A stretch of DNA of 64,000 bases. Origin: Escherichia coli (GTDB lineage Bacteria; Pseudomonadota; Gammaproteobacteria; Enterobacterales; Enterobacteriaceae). Positions 3,885 to 63,944 of the stretch are shown in pieces; the first letter of the stretch is position 1, and each line of letters opens with the position of its first letter. The position numbers and the translations under genes are program-made. Below the pieces are notes generated by a model that was not told where the DNA came from, searched no databases, and was given only the letters and a program-made list of their open reading frames with translations. Location of the stretch: NCBI RefSeq assembly GCF_003018255.1, contig NZ_CP027440.1. One strand, given 5' to 3'.

Positions 3885-4943
3885 ATGTTTAATACTGTAA
3901 AAATATCCAGTTGTGAGTTAATCAACGCTGACTGCCTGGAATTTATCCGGTCGTTACCCGAAAATTCTGTTGACCTGATAGTCACGGACCCGCCGTACTT
4001 TAAAGTGAAGCCTGAGGGCTGGGATAACCAGTGGAAGGGCGACGATGACTACCTGAAGTGGCTGGACCTGTGTCTGGCGCAGTTCTGGCGGGTGCTGAAA
4101 CCTGCCGGAAGTCTTTACCTGTTCTGTGGCCATCGCCTGGCATCTGACATTGAAATCATGATGCGTGAACGCTTCAGTGTGCTGAACCATATTATCTGGG
4201 CAAAGCCGTCCGGACGCTGGAACGGGTGCAACAAGGAAAGCCTGCGGGCGTATTTCCCCGCCACAGAGCGCATTCTGTTCGCGGAACATTATCAGGGGCC
4301 GTATCGCCCGAAAGATGCCGGGTATGAGGCGAAGGGCAGGGCACTGAAACAGCATGTGATGGCCCCGCTGATTTCTTACTTTCGTGATGCGCGTGCTGCC
4401 CTGGGGATAACGGCAAAACAGATAGTGGATGCCACAGGAAAGAAAAACATGGTGTCGCACTGGTTCAGTGCCAGTCAGTGGCAGCTACCGAACGAAAGCG
4501 ATTATCTGAAATTACAGGCGCTGTTTGCCCGGGTGGCAGAAGAGAAGCATCAGCGGGGGGAACTGGAGAAGCCCCACCACCAGCTGCTGGAGACGTATAC
4601 TTCACTGAACCGGCAGTATGCGGAACTGCAGAGTGAATATAAGCATCTGCGGCGGTATTTTGGCGTGACGGCGCAGGTGCCGTACACGGATGTGTGGACG
4701 CATAAACCGGTGCAGTACTATCCCGGGAAACATCCGTGCGAAAAACCGGCAGAAATGCTGCAGCAGATAATCAGCGCGAGCAGTCGTCCGGGTGACCTGG
4801 TTGCAGATTTTTTCATGGGGTCGGGTTCGACAGTCAAAGCCGCGATGGCGCTGGGGCGTCGTGCAACTGGCGTTGAGCTGGAGACTGAACGTTTTGAGCA
4901 GACGGTCAGGGAAGTTCAGGATTTAGTCAGTCAGAACGGATGA
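3885..4943 (+). CDS. DNA methyltransferase (N6-adenine/N4-cytosine class, DPPY motif)
   Basis: 352-aa ORF with catalytic DPPY motif (IVTDPPY) and C-terminal AdoMet-binding FxGSGS-like motif (FFMGSGST); no adjacent restriction gene seen. Confidence 0.85.
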   Translation: MFNTVKISSCELINADCLEFIRSLPENSVDLIVTDPPYFKVKPEGWDNQWKGDDDYLKWLDLCLAQFWRVLKPAGSLYLFCGHRLASDIEIMMRERFSVLNHIIWAKPSGRWNGCNKESLRAYFPATERILFAEHYQGPYRPKDAGYEAKGRALKQHVMAPLISYFRDARAALGITAKQIVDATGKKNMVSHWFSASQWQLPNESDYLKLQALFARVAEEKHQRGELEKPHHQLLETYTSLNRQYAELQSEYKHLRRYFGVTAQVPYTDVWTHKPVQYYPGKHPCEKPAEMLQQIISASSRPGDLVADFFMGSGSTVKAAMALGRRATGVELETERFEQTVREVQDLVSQNG

Positions 4944-4983
4944 TATTGCAGGATTAGTTACGTACCGTTATTATCCTGCGACC

Positions 4984-5059
4984 GGCCCTTTAGCTCAGTG
5001 GTGAGAGCGAGCGACTCATAATCGCCAGGTCGCTGGTTCAAATCCAGCAAGGGCCACCA
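4984..5059 (+). tRNA. tRNA with CAT anticodon, ileX-like (tRNA-Ile2, lysidine) rather than Met
   Basis: 76-nt cloverleaf folded by hand: acceptor GGCCCTT/AAGGGCC, anticodon loop CTCATAA, T-loop TTCAAAT, 3' CCA encoded; close to remembered ileX sequence. Confidence 0.8.
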
Positions 5060-5068
5060 TATCACATA

Positions 5069-5145
5069 CCGCCATTAGCTCATCGGGATAGAGCGCCAGC
5101 CTTCGAAGCTGGCTGCGCGGGGTTCGAGTCCTCGATGGCGGTCCA
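5069..5145 (+). tRNA. tRNA-Arg (anticodon TCG)
   Basis: 77-nt cloverleaf: acceptor CCGCCAT/ATGGCGG, anticodon loop CTTCGAA, T-loop TTCGAGT, CCA encoded; 9 nt after the first tRNA. Confidence 0.75.
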
Positions 5146-5423
5146 TTATCTGCATTATGCGTTGTTGGTTCTGATGAGTGAATCATTGTCTTTTGAGCAA
5201 CAGGCTATCATATAAGATAGCCTCAGACTTCCTTGTTTATTCTCGCCGGATGCTTCGTAGATATTTGCAGGCATCTGTATGCAGGGGTATTATTGCGGCA
5301 TATATCATCCGGAAAAATAAAAACTACATGCTGATCCGGAGATGATAGTTACAAGTCCTCCCGGATCCCGCATATTTACTATATTTTATAGATAATTGTT
5401 CTTGTTAATATGGAGATGGATAA

Positions 5424-5852
5424 ATGTATTGCCGTGCTGTACCTGTTCTTGTTTTGATATTAGCCAGTCTGACAACTGGCTGCACAAAAGATGTATCGAC
5501 AAATAATCATGATGCTTCTCTGTATCACTCAGATAAATTAATAACGTCGCAAAAATTGAGCTCATCGGAACGTACCCCTGATGCCAGTGAAGAAATCCGG
5601 CAGTATGCCATTCAGGTCAGGAAAGCCATAGAAGAACAGTTAAAGGATGCGAGTAAGTATTCAGGAAAAGAGTGTTCACTGAGAATGTATATGGCCCCGA
5701 ATGGTCTTCTGCTACGGGTTAAAAGAGAAAGCGGTGATCCCGATTTATGTCGTGAAGCGATGAATGCAGTAAAGAATGCTGATATACCATCACCACCGTC
5801 TTCAGGAGTATATAAAGCATTTAGAAATGGCGTGCTGGATTTTAAACTCTGA
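5424..5852 (+). CDS. lipoprotein with TolA C-terminal (domain III)-like domain
   Basis: Signal peptide ending in LTTGC lipobox-like motif; C-terminal ~85 aa (GKECSLRMYMAPNGLLLRVKRESGDPDLCREAM..IPSPPSSGVYKAFRNGVLDFKL) aligns with remembered E. coli TolA C-terminus; GGAG RBS. Confidence 0.75.
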   Translation: MYCRAVPVLVLILASLTTGCTKDVSTNNHDASLYHSDKLITSQKLSSSERTPDASEEIRQYAIQVRKAIEEQLKDASKYSGKECSLRMYMAPNGLLLRVKRESGDPDLCREAMNAVKNADIPSPPSSGVYKAFRNGVLDFKL

Positions 5853-5987
5853 CAGGGGGAGAAGATTTTCTCCTGTCCTGATGATTTTGGGGCGCTGGAA
5901 AGATATTGTGCTGTGAAGTGTTAAATCCCTCACAATTCAGTAAGTTGACAGTTGCCTGTCAGACTGAGCATTTGTTAAAAAAATTTC

Positions 5988-6165
5988 GCATGGTGAATCC
6001 CCCTGTGCGGAGGGGCGACTGGTGAACGGTATGATCTCTTTGATGATCGTAAGCGAGAATACGCGGGTTTGGTGTCACCGGGCTGAACTCACCGGGAGGC
6101 ACCCGGCACCATGCTCATGGTGATACAGAAATGCGGCTTCAGCCCCTCTCCGGAGGGGCTTTCTT
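5988..6165 (+). ncRNA. candidate structured sRNA, repeat family A copy 1
   Basis: Promoter-like TTGCCT-18-TAAAAA, then 5' CAUGGUG, hairpin CCCCU-GUGCGG-AGGGG, hairpin CCGGG-AGGCA-CCCGG, 3' CACCAUG pairing back to the 5' end, and terminator GCCCCTC-TCCG-GAGGGGC plus T-run. Confidence 0.45.
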
Positions 6166-6171
6166 ATGGAC

Positions 6172-6240
6172 AAAAAAAGCCCGCGCTGGGAGACGCGGGC
6201 GGCAAGGAATAAACAATAAAACGTGAAGTAATACTTCAAC
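6172..6240 (-). ncRNA. candidate antisense sRNA, family B copy 1
   Basis: Minus-strand TTGCGC-18-TATTAT promoter (plus 6247-6276), ~70-nt transcript with internal hairpin GAAGT-ATT-ACTTC, ending at terminator GCCCGCG..CGCGGGC plus T-run. Confidence 0.45.
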
Positions 6241-6312
6241 TGGCGAATAATACCCGACAGTAATCACTCTGCGCAATAGCGTGGCCTTTTTCGAATTGCG
6301 GGCTGTAGTCTC

Positions 6313-6484
6313 CCTTCTGCCGGGTGTCCTGGTTGCAGATTTCTTCATGGGGTAGGGTTCGGCAGTTAAAGCAGCGATGGTGCTGGGGCGTCGTGCAACT
6401 GGCGTTGAGCTGGATACCGGGCGTTTTGAACAGACTGCGCAGGAAATCAGGGATGTATTTAGCGGGAGCGGTTTGCAGAAGTAA
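6313..6484 (+). pseudogene. 3' fragment of a DNA methyltransferase gene (duplicate of the 4781-4943 region, in-frame TAG)
   Basis: ~170 nt nearly collinear with the 3' end of the intact methylase gene (DLVADFFMG..GRRATGVEL..), interrupted by a stop; lacks the 5' 90% of the gene. Confidence 0.7.
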
Positions 6485-6547: not shown

Positions 6548-7273
6548 ATGGATGTTGCCTGCTCTGTGGTCCTGATTCGCTATCCGATAGATATTTTTCT
6601 TGAAAAAGAAAAAGTTTCACTCGATGCCGGAAGTGTTATGCTTGTTGCCAGAAATATAAGAGGGCTTTTCTGTGCTTATGCCGACAGAGTGAAAATGGCA
6701 GATATAAGTAACAGCGTCGTCAATCAGTATCTGGAAAGGGAGTGTGAACTGACGGAGTATACACCGACAAAAATGCCTCTTTATTTGATGTCTGATATTT
6801 ACAATACGGAACTGGCGGAGGCTTTAATAACCCAGCATAGTGAATCCAGTGATACTTTGAAGGATTTCTCTGTTATAACCGCATTTTCATGTATCTCCTT
6901 ATTTGCAACAGACAGACGTCTGCCATTATTTTTGTCCGGTGCTGTAAATAATATCAGCTGTAAAGTAAGGGCTATAATTCAGACCGACATATCGGCAGGC
7001 TGGATGCTTGGTGTGATTGCATTACAATTGCATATGAGCGAAAGCTTGTTGAAGCGAAAACTTAAGGATGAAGGTTATAGCTTTAGTCGGTTGTTGCTGG
7101 AGGAGCGAATGCGTGTTGCTGTTAATCTTGTATGTTTCCAGCGAGAGTGTGGACAAGCGATAGCGGAAAAATGTGGTTACTCAAGTAAGTCCTACTTCAT
7201 TTCTGTATTTCACCAGTATTATGGTGCACCACCTGAGAGCTATGCATATTTGCAGAAAGCAGACGTTATCTGA
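6548..7273 (+). CDS. AraC/XylS-family transcriptional regulator (cargo gene)
   Basis: 241-aa ORF with C-terminal dual helix-turn-helix typical of AraC family (..LKDEGYSFSRLLLEERMRVA..IAEKCGYSSKSYFISVFHQYYGAPPESY); start codon uncertain. Confidence 0.7.
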   Translation: MDVACSVVLIRYPIDIFLEKEKVSLDAGSVMLVARNIRGLFCAYADRVKMADISNSVVNQYLERECELTEYTPTKMPLYLMSDIYNTELAEALITQHSESSDTLKDFSVITAFSCISLFATDRRLPLFLSGAVNNISCKVRAIIQTDISAGWMLGVIALQLHMSESLLKRKLKDEGYSFSRLLLEERMRVAVNLVCFQRECGQAIAEKCGYSSKSYFISVFHQYYGAPPESYAYLQKADVI

Positions 7274-27459: not shown

Positions 27460-30400
27460 ATGGCGACGTTACGTGAACTGATTATCAAAATTTCGGCAAA
27501 TTCACAGTCATTCCAGTCGGAGATCCAGCGGGCGTCCCGTATGGGCAGTGAATATTACCGGACCCTGCAGAATGGCGGACGTCAGGCTGCTGCGGCAGCC
27601 AGGGAGCAGCGCCGGGCTCTGGCTGAGCTGAACAGCCAGTTGACGGAAATCCGCGCTTCGGCTGTCGGAATGACCGGTGCGTTTGCCGGTGCCTTTGCCA
27701 CCGGACACCTGATTTCGCTGGCGGATGAATGGAGCTCCGTGAATGCCCGTCTGAAACAGGCGTCGCAGTCATCGGATGAATTTTCGTCATCACAGAAAGT
27801 GCTGATGGATATCAGCCAGCGGACAGGCACCGCATTTTCGGATAATGCGGCCCTGTTTGCTCGTTCTGCCGCCTCAATGCGTGAATATGGTTACAGTGCT
27901 GATGATGTGCTGAAGGTGACGGAGGCCATTTCGACAGGGCTGAAAATTTCCGGTGCCAGTGCGGCAGAGGCGGGTTCGGTGATCACCCAGTTCAGCCAGG
28001 CGCTGGCACAGGGGGTATTGCGCGGCGAGGAATTTAATTCGGTCAATGAAAGTGGGGACCGGATCATTCGCGCACTGGCTGCAGGCATGGGTGTGGCCCG
28101 TAAGGATCTGAAGGCGATGGCGGACGATGGTCAACTGACGGCGGATAAAGTCGTTCCCGCGTTAATCAGCCAGCTGGGGATATTGCGTGATGAATATGCA
28201 GCCATGCCGGAAACGGTGTCTGACGGGATCACGAAGGTGGAAAACGCCTTTATGGCCTGGGTGGGCGGCGCGAATGAGGCCAGCGGAGCGACGAAAACGC
28301 TCTCCGGCGCGCTGAACGGTGTGGCCGGAAATATTGATACCGTGGCAACAGCTGCGGGTGTGCTGGTTGCTGTCGGGGTGGCCCGGTACTTTGGTAATCT
28401 GGCTTCCGGAGCGATGTCTGCCACGGCAGGACTTGTGACCGCTGCACGTAATGAAGTGGCACTGGCTGAGGCCCAGTTAAGGGGAACGCAGATTGCTACG
28501 GCGCGGGCAAGGGCAGCCGTGTACCGGGCTCAGCAGGCTGTGGCGGCAGCCCGCGGGACTGAGATGCAGATTGCGGCAGAGGCCCGTCTGGCGGTCACAC
28601 AGGAACGCCTGAACAGAAATATTGCTGCCAGAACCGCCGCCCAGAATGCGCTGAACAGTACAACGGCAGTGGGTTCTCGTCTGATGAGCGGTGCGCTGGG
28701 ACTGGTTGGAGGCGTACCCGGACTGGTGATGCTGGGAGCTGCCGCATGGTACACGCTGTACCAGAGTCAGGAACAGGCCAGGGAGTCTGCGCGCCAGTAT
28801 GCACTGACGATTGATGAAATCGCGCATAAAACGCCATCAATGTCTCTGCCTGAAGCTTCAGATAATGAAGGGCGAACACGGGAGGCGCTGACAGAGCAGA
28901 ACCGGCTGATTGATGAGCAGGCCAGCCGGGTGAAATCCCTGCAGGAAAAAATCGCCGGGTATCAGTATGTGCTGGCTAATCCGGGCTGGACGACCGGTAA
29001 CGGCTTCATGATAAACCATCTGACATCGGTGAAAACTGTAACGGAAGAGCTTGCTCAGGCAACAGAGCAGTTTGCTGTTGAGCAGTCCCGCCTGGCACAG
29101 ATGCAGGAAAAAGCGCAGTCCATTCAGGATGTGCTTGCCGGACTGGAAGAGCGCCGTGTTGTGTTAATTCGTCAGCAGGCAGCAGAGCAGAATAAAGCGT
29201 ATCAGTCACTGCTGGTCATGAACGGTCAGCATACGGAATTCAACCGCCTGCTGGGGCTGGGTAATGAACTGCTGCAACAGCGTCAGGGACTGGCGAGTGT
29301 ACCGCTGCGACTGTCACAGGCCACTCTGGATGATAAACAGCAGAGCGCCCTGAATAACACAGAGCGTCAACTGGCCCTCTCCCGGCTGAAAGGGGAAGAA
29401 AAAGAGCGTGCCCGGCTGGGGTATGCGGCGGATGACCTTGGTCTGGTGGGGGATATGTATCAGGAGGCGAGGCAGCGTTACATCCGTAATTCGATGGAAG
29501 CCTGGCGCAATAATGAGGCGAATAAACCCAAATCCCGGGGCGAAAAATCTGAGACGGAAAAAGCGGAAGACAGTTTTTCCCGTCTGCTGAAGCAGCAGAA
29601 GGAACAACTGGCACTGGCCGGGAAGAATACAGAACTGGCAAAACTGAAATACCAGACCTCGCAGGGCGAGCTGAAAACCCTGACGGAGATTCAGAAGCAG
29701 GAGCTGCTGCGCAATGCTGCCCTGATTGACCAGAAGAAAATCCGGGAGCAGTTACGGGCCCGGGAGGAGACCCTGAAAAATGATAATGCAGACGCAAGGG
29801 CATCAAATGACGCAGAGCTGCTGGGGTACGGGCAGGGTGAGCGGATCCGTGAACGGATGAGGGAGCTGCAGCAGATTCGTGACAGCTACCGCCAGAAAGA
29901 TGCGGACCTTCAGTCTCAGTATCAGGCAGGGGATATCAGTGAGGATTTTTACAGGCAGGCGCTGGCGCAGAATGCGCAGTATCTGAGTGAACGACTGAAA
30001 GAGCAGGAAGCTTTTTATGCCAGGTCGGATGAACAACGTGCGGACTGGCAGAAAGGACTGCAGGAGGGGGGCAGCAACTGGGTGGACAGCGCATCAGATT
30101 ACGCTTCACAGGCAGCACAGCTTGCGACAGACGGTATCTCAGGGATGGTAAATAACATCACGGAGATGCTGAACGGAAATAAAGTGGAATGGCGCAGCTG
30201 GGCAGCATCAATCCTGCAGGAAATATCAAAAGTTCTTATGAATGCGGCCATTGTCAACGGCATTAAGATGGCGGCAAACAGTATGTCCGGTGCAGGAGGA
30301 TTTTTCGGCAGTATAGGCAACTGGCTGGGTGGCGCGGTGGCAAATGCAAAAGGCGGCGTTTATACCTCGGCAAACCTGAGTGCATACAGTAACAGTATTG

Positions 30401-30702
30401 TGGACACGCCCACGTACTTTGCCTTTGCAAAAGGGGCAGGGCTGATGGGGGAGGCCGGACCTGAAGCCATAATGCCCCTGACCCGGGCAGCGGATGGTTC
30501 ACTCGGCGTGCGTGCGGTGGGCCGCATGAACGGCAGTGCGGGTCTGGTGTATTCTCCGGTGTACCACATCGCCATTCAGAATGACGGCGCTAACGGGCAG
30601 ATAGGGCCGGAAGCGGCGGGCACCCTTGTGCAACTGATTGACCAGCGGGTACAGGCGGTGATGTTATCCATGCGTCGTGACGGAGGAATGCTGAGTGGAT
30701 GA
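27460..30702 (+). CDS. tail tape measure protein
   Basis: 1080 aa, long helical Ala/Gln-rich protein immediately after G/GT. Confidence 0.9.
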   Translation: MATLRELIIKISANSQSFQSEIQRASRMGSEYYRTLQNGGRQAAAAAREQRRALAELNSQLTEIRASAVGMTGAFAGAFATGHLISLADEWSSVNARLKQASQSSDEFSSSQKVLMDISQRTGTAFSDNAALFARSAASMREYGYSADDVLKVTEAISTGLKISGASAAEAGSVITQFSQALAQGVLRGEEFNSVNESGDRIIRALAAGMGVARKDLKAMADDGQLTADKVVPALISQLGILRDEYAAMPETVSDGITKVENAFMAWVGGANEASGATKTLSGALNGVAGNIDTVATAAGVLVAVGVARYFGNLASGAMSATAGLVTAARNEVALAEAQLRGTQIATARARAAVYRAQQAVAAARGTEMQIAAEARLAVTQERLNRNIAARTAAQNALNSTTAVGSRLMSGALGLVGGVPGLVMLGAAAWYTLYQSQEQARESARQYALTIDEIAHKTPSMSLPEASDNEGRTREALTEQNRLIDEQASRVKSLQEKIAGYQYVLANPGWTTGNGFMINHLTSVKTVTEELAQATEQFAVEQSRLAQMQEKAQSIQDVLAGLEERRVVLIRQQAAEQNKAYQSLLVMNGQHTEFNRLLGLGNELLQQRQGLASVPLRLSQATLDDKQQSALNNTERQLALSRLKGEEKERARLGYAADDLGLVGDMYQEARQRYIRNSMEAWRNNEANKPKSRGEKSETEKAEDSFSRLLKQQKEQLALAGKNTELAKLKYQTSQGELKTLTEIQKQELLRNAALIDQKKIREQLRAREETLKNDNADARASNDAELLGYGQGERIRERMRELQQIRDSYRQKDADLQSQYQAGDISEDFYRQALAQNAQYLSERLKEQEAFYARSDEQRADWQKGLQEGGSNWVDSASDYASQAAQLATDGISGMVNNITEMLNGNKVEWRSWAASILQEISKVLMNAAIVNGIKMAANSMSGAGGFFGSIGNWLGGAVANAKGGVYTSANLSAYSNSIVDTPTYFAFAKGAGLMGEAGPEAIMPLTRAADGSLGVRAVGRMNGSAGLVYSPVYHIAIQNDGANGQIGPEAAGTLVQLIDQRVQAVMLSMRRDGGMLSG

Positions 30703-31036
30703 GATTAAGACCCTTCACTGGTGTCCCCGGGAAGGGATGCAGGTGACGGAGAAACCGTCGGTGATGACGGTGAAGTTTGGCGACGGTTATCAGCAGCGTC
30801 GTCCGGCAGGACTGAATGCGCAACTGAAGACCTTTCAGGTGGTTTTTCGGGTGACAACGGATGCTGAGCGGGAGGCACTGTCCGCGTTTCTGTCATGGCA
30901 TGGTGGTTACCGGGCTTTTTTGTGGAAGCCCCCGAAACATAACCGGACGGTCAGGGTGGTGTGCCGGGAGTGGAGTATTACGGATAACGCCCGGTACAGT
31001 GATTTCAGTTGCACGATAGAGCAGGTAGTTAGATGA
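30695..31036 (+). CDS. M: minor tail protein M
   Basis: 113 aa; ..VKFGDGYQQRRPAGLNAQLKTFQVVF..FLSWHGGYRAFLWKPP.. closely matches remembered lambda gpM. Confidence 0.85.
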   Translation: MDEIKTLHWCPREGMQVTEKPSVMTVKFGDGYQQRRPAGLNAQLKTFQVVFRVTTDAEREALSAFLSWHGGYRAFLWKPPKHNRTVRVVCREWSITDNARYSDFSCTIEQVVR

Positions 31037-31234
31037 GAATTATCCTATAAATCATTCTTTAGTGTTTAGTTGTTAATTATTTTTAATCTGTCTTGTCAGA
31101 AAGTGCGAAATCGATCTTGCATTTACATTTTGTTACGTAATATAAATTGAACTAAGAATTTGTATTAAAATATTTTAATTTTTGTTCATGACATCTGAAT
31201 GCATGAATAGTTCAGTTTAAATAAGGATTAAATC

Positions 31235-32398
31235 ATGAAAAAAATGACAGTGGCACTTTCTGCTGTAGCAGTTGCAGTGATGTTTGCTGCGGGGGCGCAG
31301 GCAGCAGAAGTTTATAATAAAGATGGTAATAAACTGGATCTTTACGGGCGTGCAACCGCTCTGCATTACTTCTCGGATGATAAAGGTAATGACGGAGATC
31401 AGACTTATGCTCGTCTCGGCTTTAAAGGCGAAACGCAGATTAATGATCAACTGACCGGATTTGGTCAGTGGGAATACCAGTTCTCTGGTAACAAAACGGA
31501 ATCTGAAGGTTCCGCGGGAAATAAAACCCGTCTGGCATTTGCAGGTCTGAGATTTGCTGATGTTGGTAGCATTGATTACGGACGTAACTACGGTATTGCT
31601 TACGATGTCGGATCATATACTGACGTACTGCCAGAGTTTGGTGGTGATGGCTGGACTCAGACCGATAACTTTATGACTGCCCGAACTTCCGGAGTTCTGA
31701 CTTACCGTAATACAGATTTCTTTGGGCTGGTTGATGGTCTGAATTTTGCGGCGCAGTATCAGGGCAAAAATGAGCGCGATGACCTCCAGAAGGCCAATGG
31801 TGATGGGTATGGTTTCTCAGCCAGCTATGAGTTTGATGGTTTTGGTTTTGTGGCTGCGTATACCAAGTCAGATCGTACCAATAAGCAGGTTCAGGGACTG
31901 AATGGTAGCAAAACTATTGAAATCAAAGATCCTTTAACTGGGGATGTGACTGAAAAAGAAGTGGTCGTTGATTCCGGCAGCGTTGCAAAAGGTAAACATG
32001 CTGAATTCTGGGGAACTGGTCTTAAATATGATGCCAATAACCTGTATCTGGCAGCAGTGTATTCAGAAACCCAGAATATGACGACCTTTGGTGATCAAGG
32101 TGTTGCGGATAAAGCTCAGAATATCGAAGCCGTTGTTCAGTATCAGTTTGATTTTGGTCTGCGTCCGTCTCTGGCCTACCTTCAGTCCCGAGGACAGGAT
32201 GTTATGGTTGGTGGTGTGAACCATGGCGATCAGGATCTGGTTAAATATATTGATGTCGGTGCGACTTATTACTTTAACAAGAATATGTCCACCCATGTTG
32301 ATTATAAAATTAACCTGATTGAGGAAAGTGAATTTACCCGGAAAGCCGGTGTTGCGACAGATAATATCGTTGCTGTGGGTATGACTTATCAGTTCTGA
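31235..32398 (+). CDS. OmpC/NmpC/Lc-family general porin (cargo gene inside tail operon)
   Basis: 387 aa, signal peptide ..[20 protein letters not shown].., C-terminal ..GMTYQF; very AT-rich upstream leader; own terminator. Confidence 0.9.
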
Positions 32399-32572
32399 TT
32401 ATTGCTGATAAGTATAATAAATACGGGCCGTCAGCCCTTACTGGCGGCCTGTATCAATGAAAACACAGTTTTCATTGGTCACTGCGATCAGCAATTGCCA
32501 TCTGGCATGTGTTGATTTAACTTTCTGTTATTACCTTTATTGGTTTTATTTTAAATTGGACTTTTATTGTTC

Positions 32573-32596
32573 GGGGCGCGGTTGCGCCCCTTTTTT
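32573..32596 (+). terminator. intrinsic terminator downstream of porin gene
   Basis: GGGGCGC-GGTT-GCGCCCC followed by TTTTTT. Confidence 0.65.
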
Positions 32597-32608
32597 ATGG
32601 GCGGATAT

Positions 32609-33307
32609 ATGCAGGATATTCACGAAGAAAGCCTGAACGAGTCGGTTAAGTCAGAGCAGTCACCGCGGGTGGTGCTCTGGGAAATCGACCTGACGGTGCA
32701 GGGCGGTGAGCGGTATTTTTTCTGCAATGAGCTGAATGAAAAAGGGGAGCCGGTGACCTGGCAGGGGCGTGAATATCAGGCGTACCCGATTGAGGGGAGT
32801 GGCTTTGAGATGAACGGAAAGGGCAGCAGTGCCCGCCCGTCGCTGACAGTGTCCAATCTTTTCGGCCTTGTCACCGGGATGGCGGAGGATTTGCAGAGCC
32901 TGGTGGGGGCCACGGTGGTCCGTCGCCGGGTGTATGCGCGTTTTCTGGATGCGGTGAACTTTGTGGCAGGCAATCCTGAGGCAGACCCGGAGCAGGAGCT
33001 GACGGACCGCTGGGTGGTGGAGCAGATGTCAGCGCTGACGGCCATGACGGCCTCGTTTGTGCTGGCGACACCGACGGAGACGGACGGTGCGCTGTTTCCC
33101 GGTCGCATCATGCTGGCGAACACCTGTATGTGGGATTACCGGGGCGATGAATGCGGGTATAACGGTCCGGCAGTGGCGGATGAGTTCGACAACCCCACCA
33201 CGGATATCCGGAAGGACAGATGCAGTAAATGCATGCGCGGGTGTGAGATGCGCGGCATGGTGGCTAATTTCGGCGGTTTCCTTTCCATTAATAAACTTTC
33301 GCAGTAA
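32609..33307 (+). CDS. L: minor tail protein L
   Basis: 232 aa from MQDIHEESLNE..; near-collinear with remembered lambda gpL (..VVLWEIDLT..GERYFFCNE..NEKGEPVTWQGR..GGFLSINKLSQ). Confidence 0.9.
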   Translation: MQDIHEESLNESVKSEQSPRVVLWEIDLTVQGGERYFFCNELNEKGEPVTWQGREYQAYPIEGSGFEMNGKGSSARPSLTVSNLFGLVTGMAEDLQSLVGATVVRRRVYARFLDAVNFVAGNPEADPEQELTDRWVVEQMSALTAMTASFVLATPTETDGALFPGRIMLANTCMWDYRGDECGYNGPAVADEFDNPTTDIRKDRCSKCMRGCEMRGMVANFGGFLSINKLSQ

Positions 33308-33317
33308 ATCCCGTTTT

Positions 33318-34061
33318 ATGACACAGACTGAATCAGCGATTCTGGCGCATGCCCGGCGGTGTGCGCCAGCGGAGTCGTGCGGCTTCGTGATAAGCACCCC
33401 GGAGGGGGAGCGGTACCAGCCCTGCGTGAATATCTCCGCAGAGCCGGAGGCGTATTTTCGTATTGCACCGGAAGACTGGCTGCAGGCACAGATGCAGGGG
33501 GAGATTGTGGCGCTGGTCCACAGTCATCCCGGTGGTCTGCCCTGGCTGAGCGAGGCGGACCGGCGGCTGCAGATAAAGAGTGCCCTGCCCTGGTGGCTGG
33601 TCTGTCGGGGTGAAATTCACCGGTTCCGCTGTGTGCCGCACCTGACCGGACGGCGCTTTGAACACGGTGTGACGGACTGTTACACCCTGTTCCGGGATGC
33701 ATACCATCTGGCGGGGATAACGCTGCCGGATTTTCATCGCGAGGATGACTGGTGGCGCAACGGCCAGAACCTGTACCTGGACAATATGGAGGCCACTGGC
33801 TTTTGCCGGGTGTCCCTGTCCTCTGCACAGGCAGGCGATATCCTGCTGTGCTGCTTTGGCGCATCGGTGCCGAATCATGCCGCCATTTACTGTGGCAACG
33901 GTGAGCTGCTTCACCATATACCTGAACAACTGAGTAAACGGGAGAGGTATTCTGAAAAATGGCAACGACGAACGCATTCTGTCTGGCGTCACCGCCACTG
34001 GTCCGCATCTGCCTTCACGGGGATTTACAACGATTTGGTCGCCGCATCAGTCTGTATGTGA
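33318..34061 (+). CDS. K: tail assembly protein K (NlpC/P60 + JAB/MPN)
   Basis: MTQTESAILAHARRCAPAESCGF.. near-identical to remembered lambda gpK; upstream part of ORF 33057 is not coding. Confidence 0.9.
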   Translation: MTQTESAILAHARRCAPAESCGFVISTPEGERYQPCVNISAEPEAYFRIAPEDWLQAQMQGEIVALVHSHPGGLPWLSEADRRLQIKSALPWWLVCRGEIHRFRCVPHLTGRRFEHGVTDCYTLFRDAYHLAGITLPDFHREDDWWRNGQNLYLDNMEATGFCRVSLSSAQAGDILLCCFGASVPNHAAIYCGNGELLHHIPEQLSKRERYSEKWQRRTHSVWRHRHWSASAFTGIYNDLVAASVCM

Positions 34062-34603
34062 ACACGGCAGCGGAGGCCATCCGTGCCCTGTCGCAGCAGG
34101 TGCCGGGATTCCGCTGTCAGATGAACGAAGGCTGGTACCAGATACGTATTGCCGGTGAGGATACCGCGCCGGACCAGATATCGCCCCGACTGCATGAGCC
34201 ACTGAACCCGGGGGATGTCATTCATCTGGTTCCCCGGGCAGAAGGTGCCAAAAGTGGCGGAGTGTTTCAGGCCGTGCTTGGCGTTGCGCTGGTTGCGGCA
34301 GCTATCTGGATGCCGGGTATCGGTATTGCAGCCAGCAACATCATGTTTTCCATGGGCTCTGCAATGGCACTGGGTGGTGTGGCCCAGATGCTGGCCCCGA
34401 AGGCAAAGACGCCGGAGTACAAAAGCACGGATAACGGCAGACAGAACACGTATTTTTCGTCACTGGACAACATGATTGCTCAGGGGAATCCGGTGCCGGT
34501 GCCTTACGGTGAAATGCTGGTTGGTTCACGACGGATATCCCAGGACATCAGCACCCGTGATGAGGGCGGTGACGGGAAAGTGGTGGTTATCGGGCGGGGA
34601 TGA
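33959..34603 (+). CDS. I: tail assembly protein I
   Basis: 214 aa; ..RICLHGDLQRFGRRI..AKSGGVFQ..GGVAQMLAPKA..NTYFSSLDNM..GEMLVGSR.. matches remembered lambda gpI; overlaps K 3' end. Confidence 0.9.
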   Translation: MATTNAFCLASPPLVRICLHGDLQRFGRRISLYVNTAAEAIRALSQQVPGFRCQMNEGWYQIRIAGEDTAPDQISPRLHEPLNPGDVIHLVPRAEGAKSGGVFQAVLGVALVAAAIWMPGIGIAASNIMFSMGSAMALGGVAQMLAPKAKTPEYKSTDNGRQNTYFSSLDNMIAQGNPVPVPYGEMLVGSRRISQDISTRDEGGDGKVVVIGRG

Positions 34604-35450
34604 AAAAAAATCCCGCAGTGTTCGGCGCCTGCGGGAAGAGATACGAAGATTAACTTTAAGGAATTTTTCATTATTCTGGCAGATGAACTGTAACGCAGCG
34701 TGATTATGAGCACTACAGTCAGTGTGCGGAAATGTGAATAAACTCAGAATTTTTATTCACCGGAAGAGGATTGCCGGATATCGGTGGCAGAGGACAGAAG
34801 GCATCATGCCGGGTTCAGGGGATAAAAAAATCCCGCAGAACTCCGTGCTGCGGGAAGAGAACGATGTTGACTAACCTGTTGGCGTTTTATTTTTATTGAC
34901 CCGCAGAAACTGTAACCTGCCGGAATGCACTCTGCCACGGAGAATGACGGAAAATGTGAAGAAAATCAGAGTTTTTATTTATCCCGTGCATTCGTCTCTG
35001 GCGACAGAGTGGCGTCAGTAATGTCCGTGATACTGAGGGGGGAATTAAAAAATCTCCCGTAATACACCTGGATATTGACGGGAGAAACGAATAGTCACCT
35101 TAAGGAGTAGTTTTGATTATTGCCTGTAATCAGCGGGCGAATTGTAACGTATGGTGATTATGAGTGCCACAGGTAATTTGCAGAAATGTGAATAAATTCA
35201 GAATTTTTATTCACAGGAAGGGGCTGCGGGATATTGGTGGCAGAGGACAGAAAATATCAGGCCGGGTTTAAGGGATAAAAAAATCCCGCAGAGTTAGCGG
35301 AGCTGCGGGAAATAAACGATGAAGATTAACGTTATGGAGTTATTTTTCAGGCATCAAAAAAGTAACGCAGCGTCATTATTGCGGCTACAGGCAATTTGCA
35401 GAAATGTGAAGAATTTCAGAAATTTTATTCCGTCATGACACAGGCACCCT
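34604..35450. repeat. array of four ~210-230-bp repeat units between tail genes I and J
   Basis: Each unit: A-run plus hairpin (TCCCGCAG..CTGCGGGA or TCTCCCGT..ACGGGAGA), which is a minus-strand intrinsic terminator; GATTATGAG box (minus-strand CATAAT); palindrome GTGAATAAA-N7-TTTATTCAC; units 1 and 3 best conserved. Confidence 0.8.
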
Positions 35451-35513
35451 CCGGGGTGCCTGTTGTTTTTGGGCATAAACAGATTCAGACATCAGACAGG
35501 AGAGGGGGACAGA

Positions 35514-38500
35514 GTGGGTAAAGGGGGCGGCAAGGGGCACACACCGCGTGAGGCGAAGGACAATCTCAAATCCACGCAGATGATGAGCGTGATTGATGCC
35601 ATCGGTGAGGGACCGGTGGAAGGCCCGGTGAAGGGACTGCAGAGTATTCTGGTGAACAAAACCCCGCTGACGGACACGGACGGTAATCCCGTGATACACG
35701 GTGTGACCGCCGTCTGGCGTGCCGGGGAGCAGGAGCAGACACCGCCGGAAGGCTTTGAGTCCTCCGGGGCGGAAACCGCACTGGGTGTGGAGGTGACGAA
35801 GGCAAAGCCGGTGACGCGCACCATCACGTCAGCGAACATTGACCGTCTGCGGGTCACCTTCGGGGTGCAGTCACTGGTGGAGACCAGCTCAAAGGGTGAC
35901 CGTAATCCCTCTTCTGTCCGGCTGCTGATTCAGCTTGAGCGTAACGGTAACTGGGGGACGGAGAAGGATGTCACCATTAACGGCAAGACCACCTCGCAGT
36001 ACCTGACGTCGGTGATTCTGAATAATCTCCCTGAGCGCCCCTTTAACATCCGGATGGTCAGGGTGACGGCGGACAGTACCACGGACCAGCTGCAGAACAG
36101 AACGCTGTGGTCGTCATACACCGAAATCATCGATGTGAAACAGTGCTACCCGAACACGGCCATTGTGGGGCTGCAGGTGGATGCGGAGCAGTTCGGTGGC
36201 CAGCAGATGGTGGTGAACTACCATATCCGCGGCCGCATCATTCAGGTGCCGTCAAACTATGACCCGGAAAAACGCACCTACAGCGGTATCTGGGACGGGA
36301 GTCTGAAACCGGCATACAGCAATAACCCGGCCTGGTGCCTGTGGGACATGCTGACCCACCCGCGCTACGGCATGGGAAAACGCCTGGGGGCGGCGGATGT
36401 GGACAAGTGGGCACTGTATGCCATCGGGCAGTACTGTGACCAGACGGTCCCGGATGGTTTCGGGGGCACAGAGCCGCGGATGACTTTCAATGCGTACCTG
36501 TCACAGCAGCGTAAGGTCTGGGATGTCCTGGGGGATTTCTGCTCGGCGATGCGCTGTATGCCGGTATGGAACGGCCAGACGCTGACGTTCGTTCAGGACC
36601 GTCCGTCGGATGTGGTGTGGCCGTACACCAACAGCGATGTGGTGGTGGATGATAACGGCGTGGGGTTCCGCTACAGCTTCAGTGCCCTGAAGGACCGGCA
36701 CACGGCGGTGGAGGTGAATTACACCGACCCGCAGAACGGCTGGCAGACTTCCACGGAACTGGTGGAAGACCCGGACGCCATCCTGCGCTACGGGCGCAAC
36801 CTGCTGAAGATGGACGCGTTCGGCTGTACCAGCCGCGGTCAGGCTCACCGTGCCGGACTGTGGGTGATAAAGACCGAACTGCTGGAAACGCAGACGGTGG
36901 ATTTCACGCTCGGGTCTCAGGGGCTGCGGCACACGCCCGGTGACATCATTGAAATCTGTGATAACGACTATGCCGGGACCCTGACCGGCGGACGCATCCT
37001 GTCCATTGATGCCGCCAGCCGCACACTGACGCTGGACCGTGAGGTGACACTGCCTGAGACAGGTACATCGACGGTGAACCTGATTAACGGCAGCGGTAAG
37101 CCGGTGCGCGTGGACATCACTGCACACCCCGCCCCTGACCGGATACAGGTCAGCGTCCTGCCTGATGGCGTGGCGACATACGGTGTGTGGGGACTCTCCC
37201 TGCCGTCACTGCGTCGTCGCCTGTTCCGCTGTGTTTCCATCCGGGAAAACACGGACGGCACCTTTGCCATCACGGCGGTGCAGCACGTACCGGAAAAAGA
37301 AGCCATTGTGGATAACGGGGCCCGCTTTGAGCCTATGTCCGGTTCACTGAACAGCGTCATCCCGCCGGCGGTGCAGCACCTCACGCTGGAGGTGAGCGCC
37401 TCAGACGGCCAGTATCTGGCGCTGGCGAAATGGGACACGCCGCGGGTGGTGAAGGGCGTGCGCTTCAGTCTGCGCCTGACCAGCGGAAACGGTGAAAACA
37501 GCCGCCTGGTGACCAGCGCCATCACGGCGGACACGGAGTACCGTTTCAGTGGCCTGCCGCTCGGGGAATACACCCTGACGGTCAGGGCGATAAACAGCTA
37601 CGGCCAGCAGGGCGAACCTGCCACCACCACATTCCGGATTAATGCACCGGCGGCACCGGCCAGCATTGAACTGACGCCGGGGTATTTTCAGATAACGGTG
37701 GTCCCGCATCCTGCGGTGTATGACCCGACGGTACAGTCTGAATTCTGGTTCTCAGAAAAACGCATCACGGACACGGCACAGGTGGAAACCTCTGCCCGTT
37801 ATCTGGGGACAGGCAGTCAGTGGAGTGTCTCCGGCCCGCACATTAAGCCCGGGAAGGATTTCTGGTTTTATGTGCGCAGCGTCAACCTGGTGGGGAAATC
37901 TGCGTTTGTGGAGGCCAGCGGGCAGGCCAGCAATGATGGTGAAGGGTATCTGGAAATTTTCCGTGGGCTGATAGATGAGGCGCAGCTGGGGAAGGCACTG
38001 AAAGAGCGTATTGATGCGTCAGCCCTGCGTACTGATGTCACGCAACTGGAAGAAGATATCCGCCAGCGACTGGAGACGGATGTTGCGGAAGTGACCCGAA
38101 AAATCGGGGAGGCGGAAAACAGCCTCACGCAGCTGGTTGCGAAAAAGAATGAGGACCAGACGCTGGCCATCGCGCAGGTGAGTCAGCAGGTGGACCGGGT
38201 GAGCAGTGAAATCACACAGACAGTCAGCCAGAGCACGGAGGAAAACGCCAGGCAGATAGCGCAGGTCCGCCAGTACGTGGATGACAAAGGGAGTGAAATC
38301 ACCTCGACCACGGATAAAAAGCTGGAAGACCAGAGCGCGACCATACAGCAGATACAGCAGGTCCAGTCAGACACGAATGATGAGCTGGCTGCGCTGTACA
38401 TGCTGAAGGTGCAGAAAACGAAAAACGGCATTCCGTATGTTGCCGGTATTGGTGCGGGGATTGAGGATGCTGATGGCCAGACGCTGAGCAATATTCTGCT

Positions 38501-61137: not shown

Positions 61138-63735
61138 ATGGGTAAAGCTCTTGTCATCGTTGAGTCCCCGGCAAAAGCCAAAACGATCAACAAGTATCTG
61201 GGTAGTGACTACGTGGTGAAATCCAGCGTCGGTCACATCCGCGATTTGCCGACCAGTGGCTCAGCTGCCAAAAAGAGTGCCGACTCTACCTCCACCAAGA
61301 CGGCTAAAAAGCCTAAAAAGGATGAACGTGGCGCTCTCGTCAACCGTATGGGGGTTGACCCGTGGCACAATTGGGAGGCGCACTATGAAGTGTTGCCTGG
61401 TAAAGAGAAGGTCGTCTCTGAACTGAAACAACTGGCTGAAAAAGCCGACCACATCTATCTCGCAACCGACCTTGACCGCGAAGGGGAAGCCATTGCATGG
61501 CACCTGCGGGAAGTGATTGGTGGTGATGATGCGCGCTATAGCCGAGTGGTGTTTAACGAAATTACTAAAAACGCGATCCGCCAGGCATTTAACAAACCGG
61601 GTGAGCTGAATATTGATCGTGTTAATGCCCAGCAGGCGCGTCGCTTTATGGACCGCGTGGTGGGGTATATGGTTTCGCCGCTTCTATGGAAAAAGATCGC
61701 TCGTGGTCTGTCTGCCGGTCGTGTGCAGTCGGTGGCGGTCCGCCTGGTGGTCGAGCGTGAGCGTGAAATTAAAGCGTTCGTACCGGAAGAGTTCTGGGAA
61801 GTCGATGCCAGCACGACCACGCCATCTGGTGAAGCGTTGGCGTTGCAGGTGACTCATCAGAACGACAAACCGTTCCGTCCGGTCAACAAAGAACAAACTC
61901 AGGCTGCGGTAAGTCTGCTGGAAAAAGCGCGCTACAGCGTGCTGGAACGTGAAGACAAACCGACAACCAGTAAACCTGGCGCTCCTTTTATTACCTCTAC
62001 GCTGCAACAAGCTGCCAGCACCCGTCTTGGTTTTGGCGTGAAAAAAACCATGATGATGGCGCAGCGTTTGTATGAAGCAGGCTATATCACTTACATGCGT
62101 ACCGACTCCACCAACCTGAGTCAGGACGCGGTAAATATGGTTCGCGGTTATATCAGCGATAATTTTGGTAAGAAATATCTGCCGGAAAGTCCGAATCAGT
62201 ACGCCAGCAAAGAAAACTCACAGGAAGCGCACGAAGCGATTCGTCCTTCTGACGTCAATGTGATGGCGGAATCGTTGAAGGATATGGAAGCAGATGCGCA
62301 GAAACTGTACCAGTTAATCTGGCGTCAGTTCGTAGCCTGCCAGATGACCCCAGCGAAATATGACTCCACGACGCTGACCGTTGGTGCGGGCGATTTCCGC
62401 CTGAAAGCACGCGGTCGTATTTTGCGCTTTGATGGCTGGACGAAAGTGATGCCTGCACTGCGTAAAGGCGATGAAGATCGTATCTTACCGGCAGTCGATA
62501 AAGGCGATGCTCTGACGCTCGTTGAACTGACACCAGCTCAGCACTTTACTAAGCCGCCAGCCCGTTTCAGTGAAGCATCGCTGGTTAAAGAACTGGAAAA
62601 ACGTGGTATCGGTCGTCCGTCTACCTATGCGTCGATCATTTCGACCATTCAGGATCGTGGCTATGTGCGAGTAGAAAATCGTCGTTTCTATGCGGAAAAA
62701 ATGGGCGAAATCGTCACCGATCGCCTTGAAGAAAATTTCCGTGAGTTAATGAACTACGACTTCACCGCGCAGATGGAAAACAGCCTCGACCAGGTGGCAA
62801 ATCACGAAGCAGAGTGGAAAACTGTACTGGATCACTTCTTCTCGGATTTCACCCAGCAGTTAGATAAAGCTGAAAAAGATCCGGAAGAGGGTGGTATGCG
62901 CCCGAACCAGATGGTTCTGACCAGCATTGACTGCCCGACTTGTGGTCGCAAAATGGGGATTCGCACAGCGAGCACCGGGGTATTCCTTGGCTGTTCTGGC
63001 TATGCGCTGCCGCCGAAAGAGCGTTGCAAAACCACCATTAACCTGGTGCCGGAAAACGAAGTGCTGAACGTGCTGGAAGGCGAAGACGCTGAAACCAATG
63101 CGCTGCGCGCAAAACGTCGTTGCCCGAAATGCGGCACGGCGATGGACAGCTATCTCATCGATCCGAAACGTAAGTTGCATGTCTGTGGTAATAACCCAAC
63201 CTGCGACGGTTACGAGATCGAAGAGGGCGAATTCCGCATTAAAGGTTATGACGGCCCGATCGTTGAGTGTGAAAAATGTGGCTCTGAAATGCACCTGAAA
63301 ATGGGGCGTTTCGGTAAATACATGGCCTGCACTAACGAAGAGTGTAAAAACACACGTAAGATTTTACGTAACGGCGAAGTGGCACCACCGAAGGAAGATC
63401 CGGTGCCATTACCGGAGCTGCCGTGCGAAAAATCAGATGCCTATTTCGTGCTGCGTGACGGTGCTGCCGGTGTGTTCCTGGCGGCCAATACCTTCCCGAA
63501 ATCGCGTGAAACACGTGCGCCATTGGTGGAAGAACTTTATCGCTTCCGCGACCGTCTGCCGGAAAAACTGCGTTATCTGGCCGATGCGCCACAGCAGGAT
63601 CCGGAAGGTAATAAGACCATGGTTCGCTTTAGCCGTAAAACCAAACAGCAATATGTCTCTTCGGAAAAAGACGGAAAGGCGACTGGCTGGTCAGCATTTT
63701 ATGTTGATGGCAAATGGGTTGAAGGGAAAAAATAA
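61138..63735 (+). CDS. topA: DNA topoisomerase I
   Basis: 865 aa from [22 protein letters not shown]..; Toprim and catalytic core, C-terminal zinc-ribbon repeats (CPTCG, CPKCG, CEKCG). Confidence 0.95.
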
Positions 63736-63944
63736 CCTTTAATTCTGTCAGGTTTTTATAAACAAAGGGTCGCGAAAGCGGCCCTTTTTTATTGCATATT
63801 ATTTTTTCTTCACACCTATACACTAAGGCTATAAATGATATAGTGGTTATAGTTAGCACCTTTTTTATTATTAAATCGTATTAGTCACCCGCCAGGTGTG
63901 ACGAAAAAACGATGTTCTGATGGCGTCTAAGTGGATGGTTTAAC

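Follow-up and report, generated by a model that had tools for sequence, protein, structure and literature searches.

A general porin gene with an IpeX-like 3' region at the tail gene M/L junction of a lambdoid prophage of Escherichia coli

Phage-borne general porins of the OmpD/NmpC branch are represented by Lc of phage PA-2 and by NmpC of the cryptic prophage DLP12. A phage porin with a regulatory 3' untranslated region (UTR) is already known from this Lc/NmpC-IpeX system. According to reviews, from which its properties are taken here, the small RNA (sRNA) IpeX originates from the porin promoter within the porin transcript; processing yields an RNA of 167 nt that represses ompC and ompF (PMC12197685, PMC5069750, PMC8065619), lowering both OmpC and OmpF (PMC5069750, PMC8065619). 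The founding moron, HK97 gene 15, sits in a tail operon (PMC3594210). The locus described here belongs to a 64,000-nt stretch of Escherichia coli contig NZ_CP027440.1 (assembly GCF_003018255.1), hereafter the window. It is a cassette of 1.57 kb and low guanine-plus-cytosine (GC) content at positions 31037-32608, exactly at the junction of the tail genes M and L of a lambda-like prophage, and it carries a general porin of the same branch. The new feature is the position of the porin at the M/L junction. With a probability of roughly 55%, the cassette is a moron acting as a porin-swap module, which would make a phage porin and silence host OmpC and OmpF.

The cassette consists of a 198-nt AT-rich leader, an intact porin gene of 387 codons for amino acids (31235-32398) and a 210-nt 3' region that includes a strong terminator. 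All cassette elements, the flanking tail genes and the Q-like gene of the prophage lie on the + strand. GC content drops from 0.553 in M to 0.237 in the leader, is 0.448 in the coding sequence and 0.405 in the 3' region, and returns to 0.585 in L; the value for the whole cassette is 0.415, as compared with 0.55-0.59 on either side. Minor tail protein M (30695-31036; phrog_14, E 2e-39) forms the left flank, with the tape-measure gene upstream of it, and minor tail protein L (32609-33307; TIGR01600, E 2e-114) the right flank, with K, I and J downstream. M and L are contiguous in 151 phage records with matching flanks (BP-4795, PPompW and 149 others). In BP-4795 and PPompW the stop of M and the start of L overlap in TGATG. 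By alignment with these two junctions, the right break is located exactly at the ATG of L (32609) and the left break at about 31028-31036, because the last two to three codons of M and its TGA stop (31034-31036) differ from those of uninterrupted phages. As a consequence of the insertion, the TGATG translational coupling between M and L is lost, and the GGGCGGA preceding L is supplied by the cassette. The intrinsic terminator (32573-32596) has the structure GGGGCGC-GGTT-GCGCCCC-T6, with seven G-C-rich base pairs, a GGTT loop and a U6 tract. It is invariant across 14 variants; its U tract ends 12 nt, and its stem 18 nt, ahead of the ATG of L. The prophage itself is located at the ompW/trp locus and possesses an integrase, a Q-like antiterminator, lysis genes and complete head and tail modules.

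A sequence-only reading of the window had reported a complete OmpC/NmpC-like porin between M and L, with a signal peptide, a C-terminal YQF, an AT-rich leader and a terminator of its own. The open reading frame, the family match and the flanks bear this out, the gene being a moron, and each of the listed features is present in the sequence. The terminator does not follow the gene directly: it lies 175 nt past the stop codon, and a structured, conserved RNA region stands between. This structured 3' UTR, overlooked by that reading, is the most informative part of the cassette.

The product is an OmpC/OmpD/NmpC-type general porin according to family models and PDB matches. It passes the cut-off of the OmpC-subfamily model NCBIfam NF007841 (504.9 bits; cut-off 484) and has matches of E 1e-131 to 1e-118 among the solved chains of OmpC, PhoE and OmpF (OmpC chain 3upg, E 9e-131). 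Close homologues carry PF00267 and PF13609. The signal peptide comprises residues 1-23 (31235-31303), with cleavage between AQA and AEVYNK; mature PDB chains align from residue 24. The L3 motif LPEFGGD occupies residues 132-138, and the protein ends in TYQF. From about 60% identity to solved porins, a 16-stranded barrel fold can be inferred. The AlphaFold2 model is of low confidence (mean predicted local distance difference test score, pLDDT, 58.7), with a strand pattern compatible with a 16-strand barrel. Alignment to Lc and NmpC, proposed together with the original report of the gene, gives 67% amino acid identity, and so do the proteins named 'OmpD' in many lambdoid phages; both belong to another clade than the window porin. 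The nearest chromosomal porins are 58-70% identical. As judged by sequence comparison, the porins of the M/L junction are a distinct clade. The label 'porin OmpC', given by the NCBI Prokaryotic Genome Annotation Pipeline (PGAP), conceals a prophage lineage of its own, with a putative regulatory RNA region that the annotation omits.

The 3' region (32399-32608) extends from the porin stop to the start of L. It is conserved, structured and IpeX-like, and folds with z = -7.0 relative to shuffled sequences. Hairpin 1 (32421-32454) has 14 bp and a 6-nt loop, with compensatory changes in four pairs; hairpin 2 (32455-32477) has 10 bp and a 3-nt loop, again with four such pairs; hairpin 3 (32486-32517) has 7 outer bp, a variable insert and one compensatory pair. 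In 14 distinct variants, 99.2% of the alignment cells of the three hairpins and the terminator are paired, against 37-46% in slid controls. Compensatory double changes are found at 9 pairs, in 36 cells. RNAalifold, applied independently, returns the same helices, with no pairing in the segment from hairpin 3 to the terminator. The many G-U pairs, which the opposite strand would present as A-C mismatches, identify the + strand RNA as the folded species. RNAalifold also draws a 4-bp long-range helix between columns 84-87 and 206-209 of alignment A5 (about 32482-32485 and 32601-32604 of the window). Its partners are the invariant CUGC after hairpin 2 and the GGCGG-type ribosome-binding site of L; it shows no compensatory changes and could be due to chance.

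A covariance model of the M/L-type 3' region matches the lc/nmpC 3' UTR over its full length in 8 of 8 loci, right after the stop codon. Scores are 28-38 bits, with E-values of 2e-6 to 3e-4 that are rough owing to short calibration; the next match has E 0.33. Downstream of the chromosomal ompD-type genes of Salmonella and Citrobacter koseri the model finds no match. After removal of the terminators, the window and PA-2 UTRs align best at the seed described below (AACTTTCTGT--TATTA-CCTTTATT against AACCTTCTGTTATATATTACCCTTTATT), with a score reached by 9 of 3000 shuffles. Homology of the UTR to IpeX is partly supported by these comparisons. An Rfam scan of positions 30000-36000 yields nothing relevant, and one of the 3' region alone yields sub-threshold matches only. 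By blastn (word size 11), neither the 3' region nor the leader has a match in a phage collection of 50,697 records.

The segment between hairpin 3 and the terminator (32517-32540), predicted to be unpaired, contains two overlapping seeds with antisense matches to host porin mRNAs. Its first part, UUAACUUUCUGUUAU (32517-32531), can form a contiguous 15-bp helix with positions -19 to -5 of K-12 ompC, Shine-Dalgarno (SD) sequence included; the helix has 13 Watson-Crick and two G-U pairs and is reached by 9 of 1000 dinucleotide shuffles. At the equivalent place of PA-2 IpeX, AACCUUCUGUUAUAU forms a 15-bp helix with ompC positions -21 to -7 (0 of 1000 shuffles). The second part, UUAUUACCUUUAU (32528-32540), can form a 13-bp helix with ompF positions -16 to -4, reached by 63 of 1000 shuffles; in a second allele type the ompF helix has 14 bp (10-18 of 1000). 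This anti-ompF part resembles nucleotides 10-34 of the sRNA MicF, with a score that 10 of 2000 shuffles attain. Among 5426 E. coli genomes, 5364 have the ompC target region and 5079 the ompF target region at 99% identity or more.

Seed-restricted duplex energies were calculated against the translation initiation regions (TIRs) of the targets, negative-control targets included, and are given in kcal/mol for the window seed and the PA-2 IpeX segment, in that order. They are -26.6 and -26.7 for ompC, -18.7 and -18.6 for ompF, -9.4 and -9.6 for ompA, -13.0 and -7.6 for ompX, -11.8 and -8.0 for lamB, -8.9 and -6.1 for the TIR of the window porin itself, and -9.3 and -16.0 for tail gene L. The original IpeX study reportedly saw no effect of IpeX on OmpA. 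Duplex folding of the whole UTR against the target TIRs was unspecific, the cassette's own TIR pairing as well as the others, and was replaced by the contiguous-helix and seed-restricted tests. A scan of species-representative genomes with GGTCACTGCNATCNGCNATT gave 33 matches, all of them chance matches in unrelated taxa. The suggestion of the sequence-only reading that the porin replaces or down-regulates host porins gains concrete support in silico from the IpeX-like 3' region and the antisense seeds for ompC and ompF.

Several results weigh against the porin-swap reading. Expression of the porin and repression of its host counterparts are both inferred from sequence. The helix-length statistics for ompF are only moderately significant in AU-rich RNA (10-72 of 1000 shuffles). 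The second allele type (L004-like) is without the ompC-SD seed and pairs instead at the ompC start codon, which is not significant (83-134 of 1000). Rfam MicF is the top match for the L004 allele at 26.6 bits, far below the gathering score of 79; for the window allele no MicF match is found at E<=10. Applied to the antisense of its own hairpins, the covariance model gives up to 31 bits, and the lc UTRs, at 28-38 bits, score no higher; part of the lc score may therefore reflect a generic architecture of hairpins plus terminator. Neither blastn nor nhmmer shows any likeness of the 3' region to IpeX except at the terminator, the one match of an nhmmer profile of this region run against the lc, ompC and ompF loci (E 0.02). 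A consensus promoter scan of the leader finds no sigma-70-like site on the + strand. A leader profile, run by nhmmer against the lc, ompC and ompF loci, has the OmpR box of ompC as its best match (E 0.56; a further match at 9.8), which is not significant. Finally, none of the sequenced isolates in the phage collection carries the cassette.

The strongest competing explanation takes up part of these points. The cassette would be a porin moron without regulation in trans, its 3' hairpins serving only to stabilise the mRNA and terminate transcription, and its antisense matches coincidental in AU-rich sequence. Stable hairpins at 3' ends commonly stabilise mRNAs; the ompF helix exceeds shuffles by a small margin only, antisense self-matches score about as high under the covariance model as the lc UTRs do, and sequence searches see no likeness to IpeX beyond the terminator. 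Coincidence does not agree with the conservation of the unpaired segment, which varies least within the UTR (TTATTACCTT is invariant) although no helix is formed there. The 3' region has a mean p-distance of 0.17 and the leader one of 0.245, while four-fold sites of the same cassettes reach 0.44; both non-coding parts are conserved well beyond neutral expectation, the 3' region evolving about 2.6 times more slowly than four-fold sites. In addition, the predicted target profile equals that of IpeX, the negative ompA included, and the seed aligns with the IpeX seed. An absence of regulation in trans is for these reasons considered rather unlikely, though it is the rival that survives best.

The leader (31037-31234; GC 0.237) is a presumed promoter and regulatory region, conserved in all alleles (18 distinct leaders aligned). 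An OmpR-box-like sequence at 31116-31141 resembles the K-12 ompC C1 box: CTTGCATTTACATTTTG (31116-31132) equals the OmpR C1-box region of K-12 ompC over 17 nt, a score reached by 2 of 1000 shuffles, and TTTACAT is invariant in 18 of 18 leader variants. A candidate weak -35 element TTGTTC, an 18-nt spacer and a -10 element AATAGT (31182-31211) were read by eye against the ompC promoter; their distance to the OmpR-like box is that found in ompC. The SD sequence of the porin gene, AAGGA (31223-31227), is invariant in all leaders, and AATAGTTCA just 5' of it is common to the leader and lc. The resemblances of the leader to ompC and lc are suggestive only.

These features bear on a further alternative, by which the porin would act mainly in the lytic cycle, as a bulk product of the Q-dependent late transcript that might, for instance, decorate debris or vesicles or change permeability before lysis, and not as a lysogenic-conversion gene. 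The gene does lie on the same strand as the tail genes, the Lc/NmpC-type genes being antisense to late transcription, and the consensus scan found no promoter. A gene that is simply co-transcribed would need neither a terminator of its own nor a conserved 198-nt leader containing an OmpR-like box, and the porin gene is intact in decayed prophages incapable of late transcripts or tails. A role mainly in lytic growth is accordingly held to be improbable.

The M-porin-L arrangement is recurrent. Of 5426 complete E. coli genomes, 90 contain an identical stretch, in which PGAP labels the gene 'porin OmpC'; the 3' region is present in 110 of the 5426 and is never annotated. The arrangement thus has a frequency of about 2% among complete E. 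coli genomes. The carrier strains listed are in many cases from cattle, beef or human sources, and several are named as Shiga toxin-producing E. coli. A scan of IMG/VR gave 80 porin loci; the 31 whose identity is at least 85% are without exception located between M and L. These 31 span three M lineages (99%, 81% and 49% identity to the window M). Further porin alleles of 78-93% identity share the context, as does one contig of Citrobacter farmeri. An assembly chimera with a host porin locus, against which the sequence-only reading had cautioned, is ruled out by identical junctions in 90-110 independent complete genomes and 31 viral contigs, and an accidental, degenerating host gene is likewise extremely improbable given the clean boundaries at the M stop and L start, a dN/dS of 0.06 and the remoteness of the nearest chromosomal porins, the unusual position being all that speaks for either.

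Mobility of the cassette is indicated by locus L008 (3630-3800), which has a lambda-type tail (853-residue tape measure, 109-residue M) and duplicate fragments of the L 5' end and the M 3' end in front of the cassette. The L duplicate is degenerate and covers about the first 70 nt of L; the M 3' fragment is from another tail lineage. These duplicated fragments suggest transfer of the cassette from phage to phage by recombination via its flanking sequences. A decayed remnant, in which the tape-measure gene and L are pseudogenes, retains an intact porin reading frame and both non-coding flanks. Decayed prophages of this kind (L100, NZ_CP116169.1; L009-L012) lie by IS66, a Rop-family gene and a gene for a Tle1-like effector of the type VI secretion system, and contain an intact porin allele of 373 amino acids with leader and 3' region. 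In a cassette-bearing prophage of NZ_CP155555.1 (L098), a second insertion is located between L and K (4438-6462); its cargo comprises a ClpP-like protease, an Arc-family regulator, a YlcI/YnfO protein and a frameshifted P22AR-domain gene, so that the next tail junction, too, serves as a site for cargo. Three prophage contigs of one source genome (IMGVR_UViG_643348545_000008, _000009 and _000013; L036-L038) bear the same 85%-type allele at M/L, so that several cassette copies per genome are possible. Complete E. coli genomes have up to two cassette places each.

The porin gene is intact in 14 of 14 alleles. Outside loop L5, the mature porin has a nonsynonymous divergence (dN) of 0.053, a synonymous divergence (dS) of 0.88 and a dN/dS of 0.06 across 14 distinct alleles. 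Strong purifying selection acts on the barrel. Residues 216-252 (31880-31990) are hypervariable, with dN 0.31 against 0.05, and vary in length from about 7 to 37 residues among the 14 alleles. By the strand order in the low-confidence model, they probably form the extracellular surface loop L5, between strands 9 and 10. About 30 of the L5 residues have no counterpart in solved OmpC or OmpF. Between the window allele and L024, dS is 0.12 for the rest of the gene and 1.0 for L5. Since L5 is far more diverged than the rest in some pairs, exchange of the L5 segment is indicated.

The porin-swap reading can be set out as follows. The cassette would be a horizontally acquired transcription unit inserted at M/L of the tail operon of a lambdoid prophage. 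In the lysogen, the AT-rich leader with its ompC-like OmpR box would drive transcription of the general porin, possibly under OmpR control. The transcript would stop at the strong terminator before L, and the tail genes would stay silent. During lytic growth, Q-modified polymerase would read through the cassette terminator. The dependence of L-to-J expression on Q, already put forward by the sequence-only reading, is plausible because a Q-like late antiterminator gene is present in the same prophage at 1725-2396 (phrog_304, E 5e-105; its orthologue is annotated by PGAP as antitermination protein Q). The 3' UTR, either within the mRNA or processed to an sRNA of about 85-200 nt, would expose the single-stranded seed between hairpin 3 and the terminator. 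The seed would pair with the SD regions of the host ompC and ompF mRNAs and lower OmpC and OmpF synthesis as IpeX does. As a net effect, the surface would show the phage porin with its hypervariable L5 in place of OmpC and OmpF. The benefit could be removal of phage or colicin receptors, changed permeability, or antigenic variation via L5.

A fuller version of this proposal is advanced tentatively and with less assurance. The cassettes may represent a second, independently positioned family of phage porin-swap modules, combining an exchangeable L5 with a dual-seed 3' UTR sRNA (IpeX-like against ompC, MicF-like against ompF) that silences both host porins. Lysogens may thereby be re-surfaced against porin-dependent phages, colicins and possibly antibodies, and the diversity of L5 may record an arms race over the phage-supplied porin itself.

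Porins are the main receptors of many coliphages and colicins and the main entry route of beta-lactams. If the porin-swap reading is true, a mobile cassette in about 2% of complete E. coli genomes swaps OmpC and OmpF for a surface-variable phage porin, with effects on phage-therapy host range, colicin sensitivity, antibiotic permeability and serology. The cassette would then also be the second case in nature of the IpeX mechanism, which has been little studied, and its clear pairing seeds would allow the mechanism to be tested directly.

Other parts of the window were also noted. The gap between I and J (34604-35462) is about 860 bp long, of lower GC and poor in open reading frames; that of relatives is only about 250 bp. 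It holds three to four direct-repeat copies with a unit of about 220-230 nt and 85-nt cores at 34685, 35139 and 35357, and has no Rfam match. Receptor inference from the C-terminus of J was dropped: identity is 98.5% only to phage 1720a-02 and 50-66% to everything else, lambda, 434 and Gifsy-1 included. Downstream of Q and of two tRNA genes (4984-5145) lie reading frames for a TolA C-terminal-domain-like protein of 142 amino acids (5424-5852) and an AraC/YdeO/GadX-like regulator of 241 amino acids (6548-7273). Stx phages carry stx downstream of Q; no stx gene is seen in the annotated twin record. The 3'-UTR covariance model has a weak match (18.3 bits, E 0.038) at 63705-63804 (+).

Comparison with described systems starts from the chromosomal porins. 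OmpC, OmpF and OmpD are of the same family as the window porin and share with it the signal peptide, the PEFGG motif of L3 and the C-terminal Phe; ompC also shares the OmpR box in the leader. They differ in their distance from the window porin and in not being prophage genes, and the tested ompD-type genes have no comparable 3' UTR. MicF (RF00033) has a seed, UUAUUACC(U/G)UCAU, antisense to the ompF ribosome-binding site, as has the cassette, and a similar distance of about 80 nt from seed to terminator. In contrast, MicF is an independent gene divergent from ompC, whereas the window element is located in a 3' UTR. Membership in the MicF family is rejected, the score lying below the gathering score and only the seed being MicF-like. 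The prophage sRNA svsR (PMC12247714), considered as some mouse strains carry the cassette, is encoded in the cI 3' end, targets lamB and is unrelated.

Morons such as HK97 gene 15 and lambda lom and bor resemble the cassette in being inserted between genes that are adjacent in relatives, in deviating GC, in a terminator of their own, in an envelope product and in a presumed benefit to the lysogen. With regard to the definition of Juhala/Hendrix (PMC3594210), the cassette shows the extra DNA of differing base composition and the factor-independent terminator. Unlike classical morons, it encodes a full-size porin with a putative regulatory 3' UTR and not a small membrane protein, and its promoter is only a candidate. 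The placement in the tail operon, considered unusual at the outset, is new for porin genes, those of Lc/NmpC type lying elsewhere; it is not unusual for morons generally, as HK97 gene 15 illustrates, and it recurs in E. coli. Literature searches turned up no account of a porin gene at the M/L junction.

The closest system is that of Lc/NmpC with IpeX. IpeX shares with the window UTR the three hairpins, the unpaired AU-rich segment, the GGGGCG...CGCCCC terminator, the long 3' UTR, the 15-bp seed against the ompC SD and the same predicted target profile. In those Lc/NmpC-type loci that were inspected, the porin gene is placed between Q and the holin/lysis genes and runs opposite to late transcription, whereas the window cassette lies at M/L in the sense direction; 49 of 49 Lc/NmpC-type loci in IMG/VR have neither M nor L nearby. 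The flanks of the window porin have no BLAST-detectable similarity to those of Lc/NmpC, and the window cassette has, unlike Lc/NmpC, an extra hypervariable L5 and an additional MicF-like anti-ompF seed. By analogy, the module would act like Lc/NmpC-IpeX, yet it stands apart from that module in clade and in genomic position and orientation.

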